A stretch of 64,000 bases of DNA from Lacipirellulaceae bacterium (GTDB lineage: Bacteria; Planctomycetota; Planctomycetia; Pirellulales; Lacipirellulaceae). Positions 4,206-55,372 of the stretch are shown in pieces (position 1 is the first letter of the stretch; each line of letters begins with the position of its first letter). The DNA lies in NCBI GenBank assembly GCA_965263315.1, contig CBDHGZ010000004.1:489251-553250 (forward strand), written 5' to 3'. The notes under the pieces are model-generated. The model worked only from the letters and a program-made list of their open reading frames with translations, ran no database searches and was not told the DNA's origin. The translations under genes were made by a program, and so were the position numbers.

Positions 4206-5798
4206 ATGGCTACGATTGATGCGATGCCGACCACACGGGCGGAGCGGCGCCAGGCCTCGACTCCGGCCGGCGACCTCCCGCCGGCGCGGGAGCGAACCAT
4301 TATCGCGGCCGTGATGCTGTGCTTGCTGGTCTATCATGGACTCACGATCAGTCGGCAATGCTTGTTTACGGACGAGATTCGTGAAATCGCCATTACTCAG
4401 TGGCCGACGATCGATTTGCTGTTTGCGAATGACTCGATGCCCCCGTTGTTCCCCCTGCTGCATCGTGCATGGCTACAGGTATGGGGAACCGATGCGGCGG
4501 CGCGCTGGTTCTCGGCCCTATGCGGGATGTTGAGCGTGATTGCCGTGTGGCAATTCACGCGCTTGTTGGTCGATAGAGTCACTGGTGTGACGGCAGCCGC
4601 TCTCTTTGCCGTGATGCCGTTGCCGCTCTACTATGCGCAGCTCGTTCGGGGGTATGCGCTGATGGGGCTGCTGGCAGTGTTGGCGATTGGCACTTTCGCG
4701 CTGGCGGAGCGGGGTCGACGCTCAGCCTACTTTGCCTTCGTGGGGGTCTCCGTGGTGGGGATGTACGAGCACTACTACTTCGCCATTTTGCTGCTGAGCC
4801 TGGCCCTGGTGTGGCTTGTTTCTCGGCCAAGGCTCCCGAAGTCTCGCGGGCTGGCAGCCTTCGTTGCCATTGCGCTGTTATCGGCTCCGGTGATTTTCTT
4901 CCTCAAGACCGACTTCGGTTTCCAGAAGGAACTCCGCGCGCCACGGCCGATGAGTGTGGCCGCATTGGGCTACACCTTCACGAGTTTCTTCTCTGGCTAC
5001 TCGCTCGGACCGTCAAAGGCAGACCTCCATACTTTGTCGACCGTTGAGGCAGCGGTAATGATTGCTCCTTGGGCCTTGGCGATCACAGGATGCGTCGCCC
5101 CGCTGGCGGTTGCGGGGTTTCGTCGGCTGCGTGAGGTGCGTCTCGCCGGACCGTTGGTGGCGATGATAGTCCTGCCCGTGTTGATTACTGGTGGACTCGG
5201 GGCGTTGGCTGGCATCACCTACAACGTGCGCTTCGTGGCTTGGTGCGCAGCCCCTCTGGCTGTGCTGCTTGGCGCTGGGGCCTGCGCTCCTGGATTGTCG
5301 CCTCTGCGTCGCGCGGCCACCCTCGGCCTCGTCGCCGTGATGGTGGTGGCCCTTGCCAATCGCAACCTAAACCCACGGTATTTCAACGAAGAGTATCGGT
5401 CCGTCGCAGCGTACCTTGACGAGCATGCCCATGCTCAAGCGGCCATATTCTGTGTGAGTGGTTATGCGGCGGGTGGCGTGCGGTACTACTTGCCAGGGCA
5501 TCAGCAGCGGGTCTTGGAGCTACCTACGCCTGGGCAGTCTAGCGAAGTAGTCACCACTGTTGGTCAAGTAGACCAAGCGGTGGCAGTTGTCCGATCAACT
5601 CCGGCCAGCCAAGCGTGGCTACTCTACTGCAGGCCCTTTCATGGTGACCCGGAAGGCAAACTGCTGGCGGCTCTACGAGCAGAATTTGCCCTTGAAGAGG
5701 CCGCCCGCGCTGCTGGGATTGTGCTGTTCCGAGCGACCGCATTTGCTTCCAAAGAGCCGCCGCCAGAGGACGCTACTGTGAGTCGCACAGACAGATAG
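4206..5798 (+). CDS. integral-membrane GT-C fold glycosyltransferase (GT39/GT83, ArnT/PMT-like) with a C-terminal soluble domain
   Basis: 530 aa with more than 10 predicted TM helices and an N-terminal region like ArnT / dolichyl-phosphate-mannose protein mannosyltransferases. Immediately follows the deacetylase gene. Confidence 0.65.
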   Translation: MATIDAMPTTRAERRQASTPAGDLPPARERTIIAAVMLCLLVYHGLTISRQCLFTDEIREIAITQWPTIDLLFANDSMPPLFPLLHRAWLQVWGTDAAARWFSALCGMLSVIAVWQFTRLLVDRVTGVTAAALFAVMPLPLYYAQLVRGYALMGLLAVLAIGTFALAERGRRSAYFAFVGVSVVGMYEHYYFAILLLSLALVWLVSRPRLPKSRGLAAFVAIALLSAPVIFFLKTDFGFQKELRAPRPMSVAALGYTFTSFFSGYSLGPSKADLHTLSTVEAAVMIAPWALAITGCVAPLAVAGFRRLREVRLAGPLVAMIVLPVLITGGLGALAGITYNVRFVAWCAAPLAVLLGAGACAPGLSPLRRAATLGLVAVMVVALANRNLNPRYFNEEYRSVAAYLDEHAHAQAAIFCVSGYAAGGVRYYLPGHQQRVLELPTPGQSSEVVTTVGQVDQAVAVVRSTPASQAWLLYCRPFHGDPEGKLLAALRAEFALEEAARAAGIVLFRATAFASKEPPPEDATVSRTDR

Positions 5799-5824
5799 CC
5801 CCCCGAGGATGGCTGATGCGAGTC

Positions 5825-5913
5825 TCAGGAACACGAGGCCGCCCGCGGATAGCTGTTTAAGCGGTTCTTGGGCCCGAGCCGGTCATGCCGATTCAAGAAA
5901 CGCTGTCGCAAGG
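5825..5913 (+). repeat. copy C of a ~90-nt repeated sequence family (3 copies in window), probable sRNA or regulatory element
   Basis: Aligns with 41503-41598 (+) and 55261-55345 (-): tCAGGaACAcgaGGCcgCCCGCGgATaGCtGtTTAaGCGgTTCTTGGGCcCgAGCcGGTCAtGcCgATTCAAGAAaCGCTGT. Confidence 0.6.
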
Positions 5914-5914
5914 G

Positions 5915-6133
5915 TCACTCGGTTAGGGGTTCCGACTCTTGTGTTAGCTTGTCGCCTCGGCAATCGGGGGACGGGCTTGTGCAGGCGTCGCAGATAGAAT
6001 TGCCTTGGTCGTCCTTGAAGCCGGCGAGTCCGCCGCAGGATCCCTTGATGCGACGGTTGGAAATCAGCACACCAACGCCCATCCCCGCCAGGGCGATCAA
6101 GAAGACGGCAAGCGTAATGAAGAAGGTCGGCAT
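5915..6133 (-). CDS. nqrM: (Na+)-NQR maturation protein NqrM
   Basis: 72 aa, one N-terminal TM helix plus conserved Cys cluster (CGG...CDAC...C). Lies directly downstream of apbE in the nqr operon. Confidence 0.8.
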   Translation of the reverse strand: MPTFFITLAVFLIALAGMGVGVLISNRRIKGSCGGLAGFKDDQGNSICDACTSPSPDCRGDKLTQESEPLTE

Positions 6134-9221: not shown

Positions 9222-9866
9222 TCAGCCGTCGTGCTCGACTTGTTCGGGCTTAAAGGTCCGCAAGATCCAAATGAAAGCCCCGATCAGGAAGAACGCACTG
9301 GGAGGCAACAGCATCAGGCCATCGGGCTCGTACCAACCGCCTTCAGAAACCTTTGGCAGGAGAGTGAGGGTGCCGACAACGGGGATCGTAAGGGTGCCGT
9401 TTCCAAAGAGCTCGCGAATGACGCCCACAACGATCAAGATCAACCCGTAGCCCAGCGCGTTTCCGATGCCATCGAGAAAACTCATGCTCACGTTGTTCTT
9501 CATGGCGAAAGCTTCGGCTCGACCCATCACGATGCAGTTGGTGATGATAAGGCCAACGAAGACGCTCATGGTCTTGCTAGCTTCAAAGGCGTAAGCCTGA
9601 AGGAACTGATCGACCACGATTACCAGCGAGGCGATGATCGTCATTTGGACGATGATGCGAATCGAGCTGGGAATGAACTGACGGATCAGGCTGACCGAGG
9701 CGTTGGACATCGCCGTCACGAAGACCACGGCTACGGCCATGATGATGGACGTTTCCAGCTTGGTCGTCACTGCCAATGCCGAACAGATACCCAGCACCTG
9801 TAAGGCGATGGGGTTGTCATTGAACAGGGGGTTCAGCAGGACTTCTTTGGCTTTAGATTCAGCCAT
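9222..9866 (-). CDS. nqrD: Na+-translocating NADH:quinone oxidoreductase subunit D
   Basis: 214 aa; ...[30 protein letters not shown] is the NqrD/RnfE signature. Confidence 0.9.
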
Positions 9867-17729: not shown

Positions 17730-17805
<76 letters not shown>

Positions 17806-18044: not shown

Positions 18045-18118
18045 TGACCCCGGCGGGATTCGAACCCACAACCTTCGGCTTCGGAGGCCGACGCGCTATC
18101 CAGTTGTGCCACGGAGTC
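18045..18118 (-). tRNA. tRNA-Arg (anticodon CCG)
   Basis: Minus-strand cloverleaf: acceptor GACTCCG/CGGGGTC (one G-U), anticodon stem TCGGC/GCCGA with loop CTCCGAA, T-loop GGTTCGAATCC. Confidence 0.8.
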
Positions 18119-27398: not shown

Positions 27399-27700
27399 GC
27401 CCTCCGGCGTGGGGGGCCCAGCCCTCAGCTGAGCCTTAGTCCCGGTGCCGATTCGAACCGATCCGTTTCGGTGGTTCCTAGAGATCGGCCAACGTCGCTC
27501 TGCGGAGGGCGCGATTAGAGCGATCGTACCTGCGAGTCGGTTTAGCGGGCTCGCGAGATTCACTCGGGTGCTAGCGTCATGTTTGACTCGTGTCATGTTG
27601 TGACCTAAGTGCGGTCGAACTTCTTGGATGACGGGGCGATGTGCGCGCTTGCGCTGGCTGTCCCGGAGTCCTGGCCCCCGAATCCTCCTTATGCCCGATC

Positions 27701-30558
<2,858 letters not shown>

Positions 30559-34906: not shown

Positions 34907-37900
34907 ATGCCCCCGACCGACCTCGCCAGCTTACCTGCTCAGTACGATCACGCCGCCGCTCAGGCGAAGTGGTACAGCTTTTGGGAATCAAACGGCTATT
35001 TCCACGCAGACGCCAAGAGCGACAAGCCACCGTTCACAATCGTTATCCCGCCGCCGAACGTGACCGGCGCGCTTCATCTGGGACACGCCCTGAACAACAC
35101 GCTGCAGGATATTCTTTGCCGCATGAAGCGGATGCAGGGTTTTAATGTTTTGTGGCAGCCCGGCACCGACCACGCCGGGATTGCGACGCAGGCCCGCGTT
35201 GAGAAAAGGCTGCTGGAGACCGAGGGTAAATCGCGTCACGACCTGGGCCGCGAGGGCCTGGTCGACCGCATCTGGCAGTGGAAAGACCAGTACGAAGCCC
35301 GCATCACCGGTCAGCTCAAGCAGCTTGGTTGTTCTTGCGATTGGGAGCGACAACGGTTCACGCTGGACGATCAGTGCGCCCGGGCCGTGCGGGAGACGTT
35401 CTTCAAGCTCTTCGCCGACGGGAAGATCTACCGCGGCAAGCGACTGGTTAACTGGGACACCTACCTGCAAACGGCCGTCAGCGACGACGAGGTGTTCCAC
35501 GAGGAGAAGAAGGGCCACTTCTGGCATTTTCATTACCCGGTCGTTGATCCGCAGCCGGGCGAGCCGACGTCCGTCGAGATCGCTACCACCCGGCCCGAGA
35601 CGATGCTCGGTGACACCGCCGTGGCGGTGCATCCCGACCCCGCCAAGCAACTCGCCAAGGTCGAAGCGGAGTTGAAGGAAAAACTCGCGGCGGCGAAGGA
35701 GAACGAACGTGAGCCGATTGAGAAGCAGCTCGAAGCGCTCGCCGAGCGGCGCACCACGATGCTGCCGAAGCTTGAACAGTTACGCGACATGGCCGCGCGG
35801 GGCGTGAAGCTCCAACTGCCGCTGTGCGATCGCGAGATCCCGCTCATCGCCGACATCTGGGCCAAGCCAGAACTCGGCTCGGGCTGCGTGAAGATCACCC
35901 CCGCGCACGACGCCAACGACTACGAGGTTTGGCAGCGCACCGTCAATGGGGACGGGGCTGACATCGGCGCGATTAACATCATGAACGCCGACGGCACGCT
36001 GAACGACACCGTGCCGGAGGCGTTCCGCGGCCTGACGATGAAGAAGGCCCGCACGGCAGTAATCGAAGCGCTGGAGGCCTGCGGCGCACACGATCCGGAG
36101 TCCGATGTCGAAGACCGCGTGATCGACCTTGCCCACAGCGACCGGTCGAAGACGCCGATCGAGCCGTACCTGGCCGACCAGTGGTTCGTGAAGATGGATG
36201 AGTTGGCCCAGTCCGCGATGGACGCCGTGACCAGTGGCAAGGTGAAGATCACACCGGAACGTTACACGAAGACTTACCTCGACTGGCTCAGCGAAAAACG
36301 CGATTGGCCCGTCGGTCGCCAGTTGTGGTGGGGGCATCGGATTCCGATTTGGAGTGAGGGTGACTACCCAGAAGGAAAGCAAGTAGCTGACGAGCAAGCG
36401 TCAATTGGGCGCGAAGAAGCCTTCATTCGGCAGATGAATTCTTGGGAAGAATCGGGTCGCATTGCGGTCAGGTCTCGCCAAGGGTCATTGAAACAGAAAG
36501 TTGATGAGCAGCGATTACGTCAGGTGCTAGTGTGCGTCCGCGATGAAGCGGATATGGAAGTGGTTAGACGATTGTCCGAGCACGGCTTCAAGCAAGACGA
36601 AGAGGTCCTCGACACTTGGTTCAGCTCCGCCCTCTGGCCGTTCTCCACGCTTGGCTGGCCGGAGTCGACCGAGGAACTCAAGACCTTCTACCCGACCAGC
36701 GTACTGATCACTTCGCGGGACATCATCACACTGTGGGTCGCGCGGATGGTGTTGATGGGGCTCTACAACAAGCCTCTCGGTGACGACGGGGACGCGATTC
36801 CTTTCCCGGAGGTCTACATCCACCCCAAGATTCTCGACGGCTTCGGCGAAACGATGAGCAAGTCGAAGGGGAACGGCGTCGACCCGCTCGACGTGATCGA
36901 CAAGTTCGGGGCCGACGCCCTGCGGTTCGGCATCGCGTACCTGACGACCGAAACGCAGGACGTGCGGATGCCGGTGGAGTTCGTCTGCCCGCACTGCGAC
37001 GCGACGATCAAGCAGACGAAGAAGAACCGCATCTTGCCGCTGGTGGAGTGCGACAAGTGCCAGCAGCCCTTCAGCACGCAGTGGGCGGAGACCGAGGAGG
37101 AGAAGTCGCACGCCCGCGGCGCCGTGACCAGCGAGCGGTTTGAGCTGGGCCGAAACTTCTGCAACAAACTGTGGAACGCCAGCCGATTCGCGTTAACCAA
37201 TCTTGAGGGCTACCAGCCGGCGGCGATCGCCGCCAACGACTTGCGGATCGAAGACCGCTGGCTGTTGTCTCGGTTGGCGACCGTGACGCGCGAGGTGACC
37301 GAAGCGCTGGAAACGTACCGCTATGCCGATGCGGCCCGCACGCTGTACGACTTCGCCTGGAACGAGTTCTGTAGCTTCTACGTCGAGATGACGAAGGCCC
37401 GATTCAGCGAGGCGGGCGCCGACAAGCAAGTCGCCCAGGCGGTGCTGGCCCACGCACTCGATACGCTCCTGCGGCTGCTGCACCCGATGACGCCGTTCTT
37501 GACCGAAGAGGTTTGGCAGTTGTTGGGCGAAGTGGCGCCTGTGAGAGGCTTCGAGCCAGCGGCCTCGCCCGCGGTCGAGTCCGTGTGCGTGGCTGCTTGG
37601 CCAGAGGTTAGCACGGCAGACTCGGACGCGTCCATCGAAGCACAGTTTGCCAGTTTTCAGGCCGTGTTGGGCGTCGTCCGCGAGGTTCGCCAAGGTCAGG
37701 GGATTCCTTGGACAGAAACCCTGGAGTTTGCCGTCAAGTGCGATGCCGAGACGGCCACGCTGCTAGAGCCGATGACCCCGTACTTCGCACAAATGGCCAA
37801 GGCGACTCCCACGGCGATGGGCCCCGCGGCTACGGCGCCCGATGTAACGGTTAGCAAACCGGCCGCCGGTGGCGAGGTGCATGTGGACGTCAGCCAGTTC

Positions 37901-39028: not shown

Positions 39029-39234
39029 AGCCTTGCAAATCGCGAACCAAAGCGCCCTGATCCGGTTGCGCCGGGCTTTTGGCTTGCCTCGACGTTTTCG
39101 TCTATCCGGGGGGCGTGCGGCGGTGTCTCACTTGTTGTGCCTCTGCCGCACAACCGCACGCTGTCGGCTGTCTTTTACTGGCTCGGCGTGCTAGAAAACG
39201 AGAAGTTCCACGGAAATTTTGTCAGGACGGTTGG

Positions 39235-40698
39235 ATGTCGCTGGAGTCGCTGCAGAGCTACCGTGAAGTTGCCTACTACGTGGGCTGGTCTGACGAGGAT
39301 GCCGAGCGTCTGGTTGCAGCGAGCGATTTGTTGCTGGCCGAAGCCGAGTGGCTGGTGAATGATTTCTATCAAGAGATTGGTAGACACCCGGAAGCCGCAG
39401 CCGTCATCACGGGCGGTGAGGCGCAGATAGGTCGACTGAAGAAGACTCTGCTGGAGTGGTTGCGGCGGCTCGTGAAAGGGCCGTTTGACGCAGAGTACCT
39501 AGCCGCACGGACCGAAGTAGGTCGACGCCACGTGGCGATTGGGCTCGAGCAGAGGTTCGCCAGCGCCGCGCTAGCGCGATTGCGAAGCGGCCTAACGCGC
39601 AGCTTGGCCAGCCGCTGGGAGGGCTCGCCAGCCGATTTGATGCAACTGGTCGATTCGATCGACAAACGGATCGACCTCGATGCCATCATCATTCAAGAAG
39701 CATACCAAGAAGCTCACTTGGCGAAGCATCAGTCGTTGAGCAAGGAGAATCTCCAGTTGCGCGCGGTCTTGCAGCGCCACGCGCCGCCGATGGATATGGT
39801 AGGCGATTCGGCGGCAATGCAGGCCGTGTATCAGCTGATTGAGCGGGCCGGGCCAACCGACAAGCCGATCCTCGTGCAGGGAGAGACAGGGGTTGGTAAA
39901 GAGTTAGTCGCCCGAGCCTTGCACCAATCTAGCGACCGCAGCGAACAGCCTTTGGTAACGATTAACTGTGCTGCCTTGCCAGAAAACCTGCTGGAAAGCG
40001 AACTGTTTGGACACGAAAAAGGGGCATTCACGGGCGCCGTGGCGGCCAAGCCTGGGCTGTTTGAGGTGGCCGATGGCGGGACGCTCTTTATCGACGAAAT
40101 TGGTGAGCTTGCAGGCGGTCTCCAGGCGAAGCTCTTAAGGGTACTTGAAGATGGCGCTTTCCGACGTGTCGGCTCGGTGAAAGAGACGCGAACCTCCGTA
40201 CGCATCTTAGCGGCCACCAACCGAGATCTGGGGCAAGAAGTTCAAGCGGGACGGTTTCGCGAGGACCTCTACTATCGGATCAACGTGATTTGTATCCAAC
40301 TCCCGCCGCTCCGCTCTCGCGAGGGCGATCTTGCCCAGCTGGTGCAACATTTTGCAGGCGAGGAATGGTCACTCGAGCCTGGTTTACTAAGTTTGCTACA
40401 GTCTTACGGTTGGCCAGGCAACATACGCCAGCTGCAGAACGCTATCGAGCGCGCGAAGATTCTGGCGCAAGACGAGATCCTGCGCGCCGAGAATCTTCCG
40501 CCGGAGATCGTGCGCGTGAGCCATCGCCCCAATACTCCTCCGCCTCGCAAAGGTGAAGATCTTGAGTCGATCAACCGGGCGCATATCGCGGAGACGCTTG
40601 AGCGCTTTCATGGCAACAAGAGTCGAGCAGCGCGGGCGCTGGGGGTCAGCCGCCGGGCGATCTATCGCTTGATCGAGAAGTACGGATTGGACGCCTAG
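39235..40698 (+). CDS. sigma-54-dependent transcriptional activator with an N-terminal globin-coupled-sensor (protoglobin) domain
   Basis: N-terminal DFYQEIGRHPEAAAVI...GRLKKTLLEWLRRLVKGPFDAEYLAARTEVGRRHVAIGL resembles the protoglobin sensor globin. Followed by AAA+ sigma54-interaction domain (GETGVGKE, GAFTGA, ESELFGHEKGAFTGA) and a C-terminal Fis-type HTH. Confidence 0.7.
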   Translation: MSLESLQSYREVAYYVGWSDEDAERLVAASDLLLAEAEWLVNDFYQEIGRHPEAAAVITGGEAQIGRLKKTLLEWLRRLVKGPFDAEYLAARTEVGRRHVAIGLEQRFASAALARLRSGLTRSLASRWEGSPADLMQLVDSIDKRIDLDAIIIQEAYQEAHLAKHQSLSKENLQLRAVLQRHAPPMDMVGDSAAMQAVYQLIERAGPTDKPILVQGETGVGKELVARALHQSSDRSEQPLVTINCAALPENLLESELFGHEKGAFTGAVAAKPGLFEVADGGTLFIDEIGELAGGLQAKLLRVLEDGAFRRVGSVKETRTSVRILAATNRDLGQEVQAGRFREDLYYRINVICIQLPPLRSREGDLAQLVQHFAGEEWSLEPGLLSLLQSYGWPGNIRQLQNAIERAKILAQDEILRAENLPPEIVRVSHRPNTPPPRKGEDLESINRAHIAETLERFHGNKSRAARALGVSRRAIYRLIEKYGLDA

Positions 40699-40815
40699 CC
40701 GCTTTTCTTGGCCGAGCGGTGGGCCGTTGGGCACGGTCGTTGCAGGCGTGTTGTAGGCACGGGGATATTTCCGCCCCTCGTCTGTCGTCCCGAGCCCAAT
40801 CCGGAGGCCAGCATT

Positions 40816-41262
40816 ATGTCATTGGCTACACCCGTTTCGACTGCGGCTACCATCCAGCCGAGTGTCTGCTATCACGACGTAGACGCTTTGCTGTCTAGCT
40901 TAGTTCGTCACCTCGACGGTCCACCTTGGTCCGATCCCACGATTGCATCCTTGTTGGACAGTCTCGTTTTGCACTTAGAGGCTCATCTTGAGACGGTTCT
41001 GGAAGGCGGCTTTGCGCCTCTGGTTCACGAAGACCCTCGGCTGGCGGCGCCCGTGGAAGCCTTGCTTCGCGAGGCGAAGTCTCAGCTCTTCCGAGCGCGC
41101 GAGTTGGCCGATCGGGCTAGGCGGCAGGCACGGTTGCGGACCACATGGATCGCCATGGGTAGAGCGGTACGCGAGCTCCACCGAGCTGTCGAGCGACAAG
41201 AAGCGGCAGAACGTGAGTTGCTCAATGAGGCGTATCAGCGAGACATAGGAGCGAGGGACTGA
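40816..41262 (+). CDS. hypothetical protein, helical/coiled-coil, possibly cotranscribed with the sigma54 activator
   Basis: ORF begins 118 nt after the activator stop; no recognisable domain. Confidence 0.35.
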   Translation: MSLATPVSTAATIQPSVCYHDVDALLSSLVRHLDGPPWSDPTIASLLDSLVLHLEAHLETVLEGGFAPLVHEDPRLAAPVEALLREAKSQLFRARELADRARRQARLRTTWIAMGRAVRELHRAVERQEAAERELLNEAYQRDIGARD

Positions 41263-41502
41263 CTAGAGCAGGTTTCGAGACGCTTCTCCTCTTGAGGGGA
41301 GAAGTTGGGTGAGGGGTAAATCCTCGGTGATTCTCCACCCACTCCTAACCCCTCGCTGAAAGCTAGGGGGAATTGAAATCGGCTCTATGGCATGAGCGGG
41401 GGCGGATCCGGTAAGTGCGGCGCCAAGAGCCAAGCGAGGTATGCCGGCAAGTGAACGCAATGGTGTTTCCCGCGTTTTTGATCGGGCACGGCCACTGCGA
41501 CT

Positions 41503-41598
41503 CGCAGGAACAGAGGGCTACCCGCGAATGGCCGATTAAGCGTTTCTTGGGCTCAAGCTGGTCACGTCATTTCAAGAATCGCTGTAAGGCCGATTGCC
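41503..41598 (+). repeat. copy A of the ~90-nt repeated sequence family
   Basis: GCAGGAACAGAGGGCTACCCGCGAATGGCCGATTAAGCGTTTCTTGGGCTCAAGCTGGTCACGTCATTTCAAGAATCGCTGTAAGG. The 27-nt core GCGTTTCTTGGGCTCAAGCTGGTCACG is identical to copy B. Confidence 0.6.
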
Positions 41599-41709
41599 GC
41601 ACAGACGCTTGCCATCGCAGTGCCTTTGCAAGCTATAATGGTAACGCCGAATGGCTTGCTCACGAGAGTCGTCGGCTCGCTCAGCCAATCGTCAGCCAAG
41701 GACGCCGCC

Positions 41710-42120
41710 ATGCCTGTTGCCATGGAACTCTCGCGGATCATAATCAGCGAGATCAACGACCAGCAAGTGATCTATCTTCGCGAAGTCGACGGCGACCGAG
41801 CATTTCCCATTCTGATTGGCATCTTTGAAGCGACCAGCATCGATCGCCGCGTAAAGCAAGTTGAGTCTCCACGGCCCTTGACACATGACTTAGTGGTCCA
41901 GGCGGTTGAGTTACTTGGCGGCGATCTTCAGGACGTGGTCATCAACGATCTTCGAGACCATACCTACTACGCGCAGATCCGCGTACGACAGGATGGCGAG
42001 CTCGTAGAAATCGACGCCCGACCTTCCGATGCGATTGCCGTGGCAGTGACGTGCGATCCTCCTTTGCCGATCTATGTGGCCGAGGATGTGCTGAACGATG
42101 TGATGCGTGAGCAGGCGTAG
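41710..42120 (+). CDS. bifunctional nuclease family protein (DUF151/BFN domain)
   Basis: MPVAMELSRIIISEINDQQVIYLREVDGDRAFPILIGIFEATSI... matches the DUF151 fold. Confidence 0.7.
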   Translation: MPVAMELSRIIISEINDQQVIYLREVDGDRAFPILIGIFEATSIDRRVKQVESPRPLTHDLVVQAVELLGGDLQDVVINDLRDHTYYAQIRVRQDGELVEIDARPSDAIAVAVTCDPPLPIYVAEDVLNDVMREQA

Positions 42121-45244: not shown

Positions 45245-45726
45245 AGAGGTACTAGACCACGACGACACAACGATCACGACGTACGAGGGATATCAGAGTA
45301 CGTCGCGAGTGATGCCGTCCTTGAGTTGGACGTTGTTGAAGTTGATTGGGAAGCCTTGGCTGCTGGCTGGTCAGCTTGAGATAGGTGAGTCTTTGAGCCT
45401 TGTGAATTGACTGGATGGATTCGACTGCCTTGAGTTCAACGATGACACATTGCCGGCCAAGACGTTAATTCGTAACCCCGACTCTAAGCGAAAGTCATCA
45501 TAATCGCCGGATAAGTCGAGTTGATGCTTGAACGAGACACCCATCCTCGACAGCTCGTGACACCAACAGGTTTCGGAGACCGACTCGAGCAGTCCGGGGC
45601 CCAGCGCCCTGATGAATACGAAACGTCGCTTCGATCACGGCAGAAGCAAGGCGCTCTACCTCCGTTGGGATTGGCTGATGTTCGGACACTCTGTAAGTGG
45701 TGCTCGTTGTGTCGTCCTGGTTCCCA

Positions 45727-55033: not shown

Positions 55034-55260
55034 TGCTTCAGGGGTCGGCCAGAGGAGTCGTCCTCGCCATCTGCGGCACCAAGCAGTACGGGATGGAAAC
55101 GGGGAAAGCTTCAGCTAGAGGCTGCAAAATCGCCCCAGCCCCCCTACAATGACAGGCTGTTACGAGCCCAGGGCTGCATCGAGGCACTTCCGAAGGGCCA
55201 CAGCTATGCCTGGGGTAAAGTGGAAGGGAGGGCCAGGTCGCGGTCCGCGTGCTACCGCGG

Positions 55261-55345
55261 TTCTTGAATTGGCGTGACCAGCTTGAGCCCAAGAAACGCA
55301 TAAACAGCCATCCGCGGGTGGCCACGTGTGCCTGCAACTTGCAGT
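55261..55345 (-). repeat. copy B (reverse orientation) of the ~90-nt repeated sequence family
   Basis: Reverse complement reads GCAGGCACACGTGGCCACCCGCGGATGGCTGTTTATGCGTTTCTTGGGCTCAAGCTGGTCACGCCAATTCAAGAACCGCGGTAGC. Confidence 0.6.
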
Positions 55346-55372
55346 AGGCCCGTTCCCCTGCAGCAGCATCTG

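Follow-up and report, generated by a model that had tools for sequence, protein, structure and literature searches.

An undescribed, low-copy, non-coding intergenic repeat family in an uncultured planctomycete

The stretch of DNA analyzed in this study (64 kb, hereafter the window) is ordinary chromosome and carries the nqr operon together with the genes for tRNA synthetases, FtsK, FtsH, polyphosphate kinase (ppk1), and aspartate kinase. The proteins that flank the repeat described below are nearest to those of Posidoniimonas, Pirellulimonas, and Botrimarina (Pirellulales); PPK1 is about 70% identical, and the closest proteins from MAGs reach 82-87%. The GC skew is uniformly positive across the window, so that neither an origin nor a terminus lies within it, and a clustering of the repeat copies close to an origin was rejected. 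No transposase or integrase was detected by Pfam in the about 45 main ORFs of the window that were scanned, and none was found in 64 kb plus 3.6 kb of the source genome. This is in agreement with the first-pass annotation, which had reported no association of the copies with insertion sequences or transposase genes.

Two converging tRNA genes, 17730-17803 (+) and 18045-18118 (-), lie about 240 nt apart; Rfam matched nothing else in the window. The FtsK/SpoIIIE homologue (976 aa, 27628-30558, +) contains two long, highly acidic, Glu/Asp-rich tracts of low complexity, which consist at the DNA level of GAR-rich repeats of 9-12 nt (28300-28436 and 30334-30551) and dominate the list of direct repeats in the window. 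Between the genes for phosphoglycerate mutase and homoserine dehydrogenase is a spacer (45256-45721) with a frameshifted PDDEXK_3 pseudogene on the minus strand, which matches the intact gene at the same position in the related contig L150 (tblastn E = 2.5e-21, split over two frames) and is flanked by a 29-nt inverted repeat (45256-45284 and 45693-45721, 86% complementary). In relatives, that neighborhood has one or two PDDEXK_3 genes, which are intact. A 34-nt inverted repeat (85% complementary) between the 3' part of the PMT_2 gene (5585-5618) and the valyl-tRNA synthetase gene (36645-36678) is probably due to chance.

A sequence of about 103 nt occurs at three loci of the window: copy A at 41490-41592 on the plus strand, copy B at 5811-5913, also on the plus strand, and copy C at 55247-55349 on the minus strand. 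A profile built from the three sequences gave exactly three strong nhmmer matches in the window, at 41491-41602 (+, E = 1.3e-34) for A, 5812-5924 (+, E = 1.4e-34) for B, and 55348-55249 (-, E = 2.2e-33) for C; the next-best match was a partial copy at 5772-5817 (E = 1e-4), and the remainder was noise. The covariance model, run with filters off, scored copies C, A, and B at 119.9, 114.3, and 114.1 bits, respectively, and 15 bits or less elsewhere in the window. Copy C is identical in the ENA contig L023 from the same strain. The pair A/C is the longest repeat in the window that is not of low complexity (93 nt, 83% complementary), and ungapped, in-register comparison over 95 nt gave identities of 74% for A-B, 81% for A-C, and 80% for B-C. 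Homology ends sharply at about 103 nt, and the flanks beyond the element are unrelated between the copies.

These results confirm that three loci hold one shared sequence, as the first-pass annotation had claimed. Its alignment of about 85-95 nt was right as to homology but began too late, because the true start lies about 13 nt further 5' and takes in a 13-bp palindrome. It had also described a 27-nt core common to two copies. The core, GCGTTTCTTGGGCTCAAGCTGGTCACG, is indeed identical in two of them, but these are the 41.5-kb copy (A, 41540-41566, +) and the 55.3-kb copy (C, 55273-55299, -) and not the 5.8-kb copy that it had named; copy B differs at 5 of the 27 positions. The flank motifs that it quoted are present, and in a motif scan of the window the sub-motifs were confined to the copies, with the sole exception of a copy of the 5' module alone upstream of B.

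The full copies are all intergenic and lie in both orientations, as had been stated, and analysis of the flanking genes placed them in three settings without a consistent orientation or position: a convergent 3' gap (B), the region upstream of a putative promoter (A), and, in antisense, a 5' leader (C). Copy A starts 228 nt past the stop of a 184-aa ORF (40708-41262), and its 3' end is about 17 nt upstream of TTGCCA-N19-TATAAT (TATAAT at 41634-41639), the putative promoter of a gene for a BFN-domain protein with its ATG at 41710. Further upstream of copy A is a gene for a sigma-54 enhancer-binding protein (39079-40698, +) with an N-terminal protoglobin sensor domain (Pfam Protoglobin, 4.4e-34; Sigma54_activat, 1.3e-69); this protoglobin/sigma-54 activator gene is followed by the 184-aa ORF, which has no Pfam match, just 5' of copy A. 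Copy B fills nearly all of a 116-nt gap between two convergent genes, from the stop of a PMT_2 glycosyltransferase gene (5796-5798, +) to the stop of nqrM (5915-5917, -). The latter gene (5915-6133, -) encodes only 72 aa, below the usual ORF length cutoff, but it matches PF04400 (25.2 bits versus a cutoff of 22), directly follows apbE, and is the last gene of an nqrABCDEF-apbE-nqrM operon; counting it reduces the apparent spacer around copy B from 341 to 116 nt. Copy C, on the minus strand, occupies part of the Dabb-ppk1 spacer, and about 24 nt separate it from the ppk1 ATG (55373, +). We infer that the 5' leader of ppk1 contains this copy in antisense, following a conserved putative promoter block at a distance of about 95 nt, in which case the ppk1 mRNA would carry its reverse complement.

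The element is composed of two modules. The 5' module begins with the palindrome CTGCRA-N-TYGCAG, followed by GGAACA (GGCACA in C) and then by GGCC-N-CCCGCGG-AT-GGCT. The 13-bp palindrome is located at 41495-41507 (+) in A and 55332-55344 in C; its counterpart in B (5816-5828) is degenerate. The sequences CTGCGA-C-TCGCAG of A and CTGCAA-G-TTGCAG of C differ by a symmetric double change (pair 14-18: GC twice, AU once). Taken by itself, the palindrome motif shows no enrichment in the window (11 matches versus 8.9 expected). The 3' module (A, 41539-41583, +; B, 5860-5904; C, 55257-55299) is an 11-nt internal inverted repeat, AGCGnTTCTTG/CAAGAAnCGCT, with a 23-nt spacer. Its stems are invariant in all copies, including the 10 pairs of helix 3, which never vary, and only opposed single bases change. 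The partial copy, B' (5772-5817, +; profile positions 2-47), consists of the 5' module only, that is, the palindrome and the AGCCCCCCGAGGATGGCTG block. It is arranged in tandem with copy B, immediately 5' of it, and overlaps the PMT_2 ORF at its final codons and TAG stop. The match has three mismatches in the sub-motif, for which 0.17 matches would be expected in the whole window, and local alignment of B' to module 1 was significant against shuffles (p<=0.01). The idea that the 5' module was once duplicated in all copies was rejected; only the upstream flank of B is significantly similar to it, and those of A and C are not.

No terminal inverted repeats were found: the two ends of the element do not pair with each other, and the only inverted repeat common to the copies is the internal one in the 3' half. 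Likewise, no flanking direct repeat common to the copies, as would be left by a target-site duplication, was found. The 8-mer GGCCGATT occurs twice in copy A only, at 41530-41537 and 41588-41595 (+), where it brackets the 3' module and not the whole element. The pair resembles a target duplication around a mini-element of about 50 nt; however, B and C do not have it, and it may have arisen by chance (probability of about 0.16 for any 8-mer repeat in 146 nt).

The repeat family is non-coding and is not a gene remnant, given that substitutions show no excess at third codon positions, the frame concerned has no start codon in A, the overlapping ORFs have no Pfam match, and a six-frame search returned no homologue. 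Substitution counts at the three codon positions were 7, 11, 7; 7, 7, 4; and 7, 5, 7 for the three pairs, so that the earlier statement that changes are not concentrated at third positions is borne out. In contrast to the in-frame stop that had been reported in one copy, one frame was found open through all three copies. A composite query of six frames of all three copies, designed to detect also spurious ORFs annotated over further copies elsewhere, matched none of 5.8 billion protein clusters at E<=10. It could be argued that the copies are remnants of a protein-coding gene, a family of small ORFs, or the ends of a larger known mobile element, since that shared frame is open and since A is overlapped by a longer spurious ORF of 137 aa and C by two of 99 and 80 aa. 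However, the absence of a third-position bias, the missing start codon, the empty protein and Pfam searches, the sharp end of homology at about 103 nt, and the absence of IS genes from the window all speak against it, and we regard this reading as hardly credible and effectively already refuted.

The element also does not correspond to any described family. With Rfam 15 at gathering thresholds, the whole window yielded the two tRNAs only and no match at any copy. In E-value mode (E<=10), nothing was found around A and C, and around B there were two chance-level matches of 15 and 12.7 bits, compared with gathering thresholds of 50 and 33. No match was found by blastn in plasmid and phage records. 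The first-pass annotation, which had called the family undescribed, is thus upheld on this point by the absence of a credible Rfam match, of a protein homologue, and of a plasmid or phage match.

The RNAalifold consensus of the three copies has three short hairpins with 28 pairs; 96% of the cells pair, and two pairs are compensatory. Several alternations between G-U and G-C favor the A-sense strand; G-U pairs exist on that strand only. With three sequences, however, the consensus structure is not significant, since 119 of 500 column shuffles do as well. Variable columns are as frequent among paired (15/56) as among unpaired (11/33) columns (p = 0.63), and the 19-26% divergence is thus spread evenly over both. 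On neither strand was the folding energy better than that of dinucleotide shuffles (z between -1.5 and +0.7); the MFE z-scores of the three copies were +0.67, -0.37, and -0.23 in sense and -1.50, +0.38, and -0.06 in antisense. Consensus scans found no sigma-70-like promoter or intrinsic terminator at any copy, and there is no U-tract. Sigma-54 and ECF promoters, IHF, attC, and parS/matS sites, and ends of the IS200/IS605 type were rejected on inspection by eye against the consensus sequences, on account of unfit spacings or invariant bases. The folding and covariation analysis that the first-pass annotation had proposed therefore lends no support to an RNA gene, in that the three-hairpin model is not significant.

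The region upstream of ppk1 allows the locus of copy C to be compared with its relatives. A block at 55121-55152 (+), GCTGCA...CCCCCTACAATG, can be aligned in three related genomes that do not have the repeat (L025, about 9780-9815; L024, about 1095-1130; L153, 6637-6670). In the form GCTGCA-N18-CCCCCTA(C/T)AATG, it is thus kept in four Pirellulales genomes, and the rest of the spacer is unalignable. The block is probably the ppk1 promoter, a reading based on its TACAAT/TATAAT box and its conservation. The PPK1 proteins of these relatives are 82% (L024), 79% (L025), and 75% (L153) identical. Downstream of the block, their leaders measure about 105-190 nt and are unrelated, compared with about 215 nt here, including the reverse complement of the element. 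The element is missing from the syntenic Dabb-ppk1 spacers of all three relatives although the promoter block is conserved, and for this reason we take it, from this alignment, to be a lineage-specific occupant of the ppk1 leader and not a conserved part of the locus.

Searches of 88.7 kb from seven related Pirellulales contigs (L024, L025, and L150-L154) with nhmmer and with the covariance model found no copy. At the density of the window, about 4.2 copies would be expected there, and the Poisson probability of finding none is about 0.016. The covariance model gave a weak match in the MORN-FtsH spacer of L025 (6747-6849, -; 13.5 bits, E = 0.14), which resembles both ends of the element (GGCTAGAGCGAGTCGCTC... 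and ...CACGTAAAATCAGGATTCGCTCTAGG) and not the middle. Given the amount of sequence searched, this score is not significant, and the match, which could be a strongly diverged relative or due to chance, was rejected as a copy of the family. A scan of GTDB (one genome per species) with the pattern TTCTTGGGCNCNAGCNGGTCA returned 22 single matches in unrelated phyla, which is chance level: about 17 would be expected for 18 fixed bases in 2x596 Gb. When these matches were examined with nhmmer, only the pattern was matched, and the longest match, L014, is without the rest of the element. A JGI metagenome scan with a spaced pattern of 21 bases found one unrelated sequence, in four contigs, and the IMG/VR viral scan gave chance matches only, the pattern being too loose. 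The repeat family is accordingly undescribed, confined to one lineage, of low copy number, and without positive evidence of function.

Our preferred reading, which we hold tentatively and at slightly less than an even chance, is that this non-coding sequence is a dispersed intergenic repeat, low in copy number and restricted to one lineage, that is broadly akin to ERIC/RU-type units, MITEs, and mosaic REP clusters and is co-transcribed in the UTRs of its neighbors. It is supported by the three full copies and the truncated tandem half copy, which are highly significant as a repeat. Truncated and mosaic copies are typical of dispersed repeats. The copies have no fixed orientation or position relative to genes, and they have no promoter or terminator of their own and are neither coding nor gene remnants. 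The element is missing at the syntenic Dabb-ppk1 spacer though the promoter block is conserved, and the leader is longer here. No copy was found in the 88.7 kb of relatives, and the GTDB, JGI, and IMG/VR scans stayed at chance level. The even distribution of the divergence over paired and unpaired columns points in the same direction.

In mechanistic terms, the copies would have been laid down by a process at the DNA level, either mobilization in trans or recombination. The spread would have taken place within the source lineage after its split from the sequenced relatives, by insertion in either orientation into non-essential transcribed spacers. At present, each copy is probably a passive part of a neighboring transcript. 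The 3' UTRs of both PMT_2 and the nqr operon would include copy B, and the 5' leader of ppk1 would include copy C in reverse complement; copy A is located just upstream of the presumed promoter of the BFN gene. The short hairpins of the copies could modestly affect mRNA ends or translation.

Several observations do not fit this reading well. The marks of known mobile repeats are missing, namely terminal inverted repeats, a shared target-site duplication, and a nearby transposase, and a GTAG or CGTC tag is not conserved. If the source genome was included in the GTDB scan with only the window masked, the 21-nt core occurs nowhere else, and the family would be tiny and local. The two compensatory pairs and several changes from G-U to G-C keep the pairing on the A-sense strand only, and the long stem is invariant while the opposed bulge bases vary freely; together, the strand-limited pairing and the invariant stem hint at selection on structure. 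Similarly, the identity of A and C over 27 nt, compared with 81% overall, hints at constraint or gene conversion.

The first-pass annotation considered a small RNA or a regulatory repeat. In the former case, the copies would be paralogues encoding a small RNA that acts in trans, or members of a single sRNA family with at least three loci, and would be transcribed from promoters within or adjacent to the element. In favor of this, the copies lie between genes, measure about 100 nt, and are strand asymmetric in their G-U pairs, their three-hairpin consensus includes two compensatory pairs and forms in 96% of the cells, and no known RNA family matches, so that such an sRNA would be new. However, the copies have neither a sigma-70-like promoter nor an intrinsic terminator and their flanks are unrelated, they fold no better than shuffles, and the covariation is not significant (119/500; p = 0.63). 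Moreover, copy B fills a 116-nt gap between two stops, copy C is on the strand opposite to the ppk1 leader that contains it, and the element is not conserved in relatives, either at the syntenic region upstream of ppk1 or at the other sites sampled. The annotation had itself listed among its grounds for refutation that these three were the only matches and that relatives did not conserve them, and as far as the accessible data go, this is what was found. We therefore consider sRNA genes unlikely, whereas a regulatory repeat is possible. A selected cis-acting RNA module in UTRs, which would act, for example, as a 3'-end stabilizer, a processing site, or a leader structure that controls ppk1 translation, is doubtful. 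In its favor, copy B occupies the very site at which two converging transcripts have to end, the ppk1 leader has the reverse complement of copy C at about 24 nt from the ATG, and the stems of the 3' module are invariant. In a variant of this proposal, the sense copies A and B would base-pair in trans with copy C, which is antisense in the ppk1 leader; the 93 nt over which A and C show 83% complementarity include 27 nt without a mismatch, and transcripts through A and the ppk1 leader could thus form a long duplex. Yet the copies face both ways in their host transcripts, although a single RNA function should be specific for orientation, there is no U-tract or excess folding stability, relatives manage the same genes without the element, and transcription through copy A is only presumed. 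The most far-reaching version would be a functional RNA private to one uncultured lineage of Pirellulales, in which A, and B in the PMT_2 3' UTR, pair with the ppk1-leader copy and couple polyphosphate kinase expression to distant transcription, or else a new class of structured sRNA in Planctomycetota, a phylum in which, to our knowledge, almost no sRNAs have been described. We find this very unlikely.

The element might instead act as double-stranded DNA, as a site for a dimeric protein such as a transcription factor, a nucleoid or segregation protein, or a recombinase. The candidate targets would be the 13-bp palindrome CTGCRA-N-TYGCAG, the CCGCGG block, and the TTCTTG/CAAGAA inverted repeat. 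The double change between A and C keeps the symmetry of the palindrome even at the innermost A/T pair, which could not pair in a hairpin with a 1-nt loop, and this fits recognition of duplex DNA better than an RNA hairpin. A DNA site would also be indifferent to orientation, as observed, and two copies are placed where a regulator might act, A about 17 nt upstream of a putative -35 box and C between promoter and start codon. On the other hand, a hundred conserved bases far exceed the needs of a binding site, the palindrome is degenerate in B, and the motif is unenriched in the window (11 versus 8.9 expected). In addition, the neighbors (a nuclease-domain protein, ppk1, the end of the nqr operon, and a glycosyltransferase) have no obvious common function, and copy B lies between two 3' ends, where there is nothing for a regulator. 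Taken jointly, this site and its candidate targets appear quite unlikely.

If the element is a dispersed intergenic repeat, as we prefer, it is a minor item of annotation, a new small repeat family in an uncultured planctomycete, which would account for three unusually long spacers and could be a useful marker of strain or lineage. It is also a caution that repetition alone is poor ground for calling sRNA genes. If the complete genome has many copies, the family would represent a new non-autonomous element without inverted-repeat ends, and this would imply a novel mechanism of mobilization. The finding would gain weight in that case, and also if copy C, antisense in the ppk1 leader, turned out to have a regulatory role.

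Among the known systems, ERIC/IRU and the enterobacterial RU-1, RU-2, and RU-3 are intergenic repeat units (PMC2759123, PMC3184786) that the element resembles in many respects. They are about 100-170 nt long, non-coding, and restricted to intergenic regions, usually transcribed spacers; their copies are 70-90% alike, occur in either orientation, may be truncated or mosaic, and have no transposase of their own, and the copies described here are dispersed in the same way. However, ERIC/RU are imperfect palindromes whose ends pair in one long stem-loop, in contrast to the three short hairpins without excess stability found here, and several genera carry them in tens to hundreds of copies, compared with 3.5 known copies in one lineage. 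The element is similar to MITEs in being a small, non-autonomous-looking, AT/GC-neutral intergenic insertion that is absent from the syntenic site in relatives, but the defining terminal inverted repeats and target-site duplications of MITEs were not found here, and no parent IS is known.

REP sequences are palindromes of 20-40 nt with a conserved GTAG or CGTC tag and have been reported in Planctomycetes (PMC3733652); REP, BIME, and REPIN elements are mobilized by RAYT transposases (PMC3733652, PMC2817692). Like them, the element contains short GC-rich palindromes, is extragenic, has a mosaic or tandem arrangement (the half copy beside B), and can lie between convergent genes, as they often do. 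In contrast, a REP is a single palindrome present in more than 100 copies, whereas the element is about 103 nt long with three different short palindromes and apparently has a low copy number. Of the tags, GTAG was seen only beside copy C (CAGTAGGCC and GGTAGCA), and A and B do not conserve it. The copies do not behave as a TR/VR pair of a diversity-generating retroelement; the substitutions between them are of all types instead of adenine specific, and no RT was found by Pfam among the window ORFs scanned. Multi-copy sRNA genes, such as Ssr9 with ISPpu9 in Pseudomonas putida (PMC12288879), are also dispersed non-coding paralogues of about 100 nt in one genome; they differ in having mapped transcripts and an associated IS, whereas no promoter, terminator, or IS was found here. 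Because terminal inverted repeats, target duplications, a GTAG/CGTC tag, and a single long hairpin are all missing, the repeat can be classed only within the broad class of small intergenic repeats.
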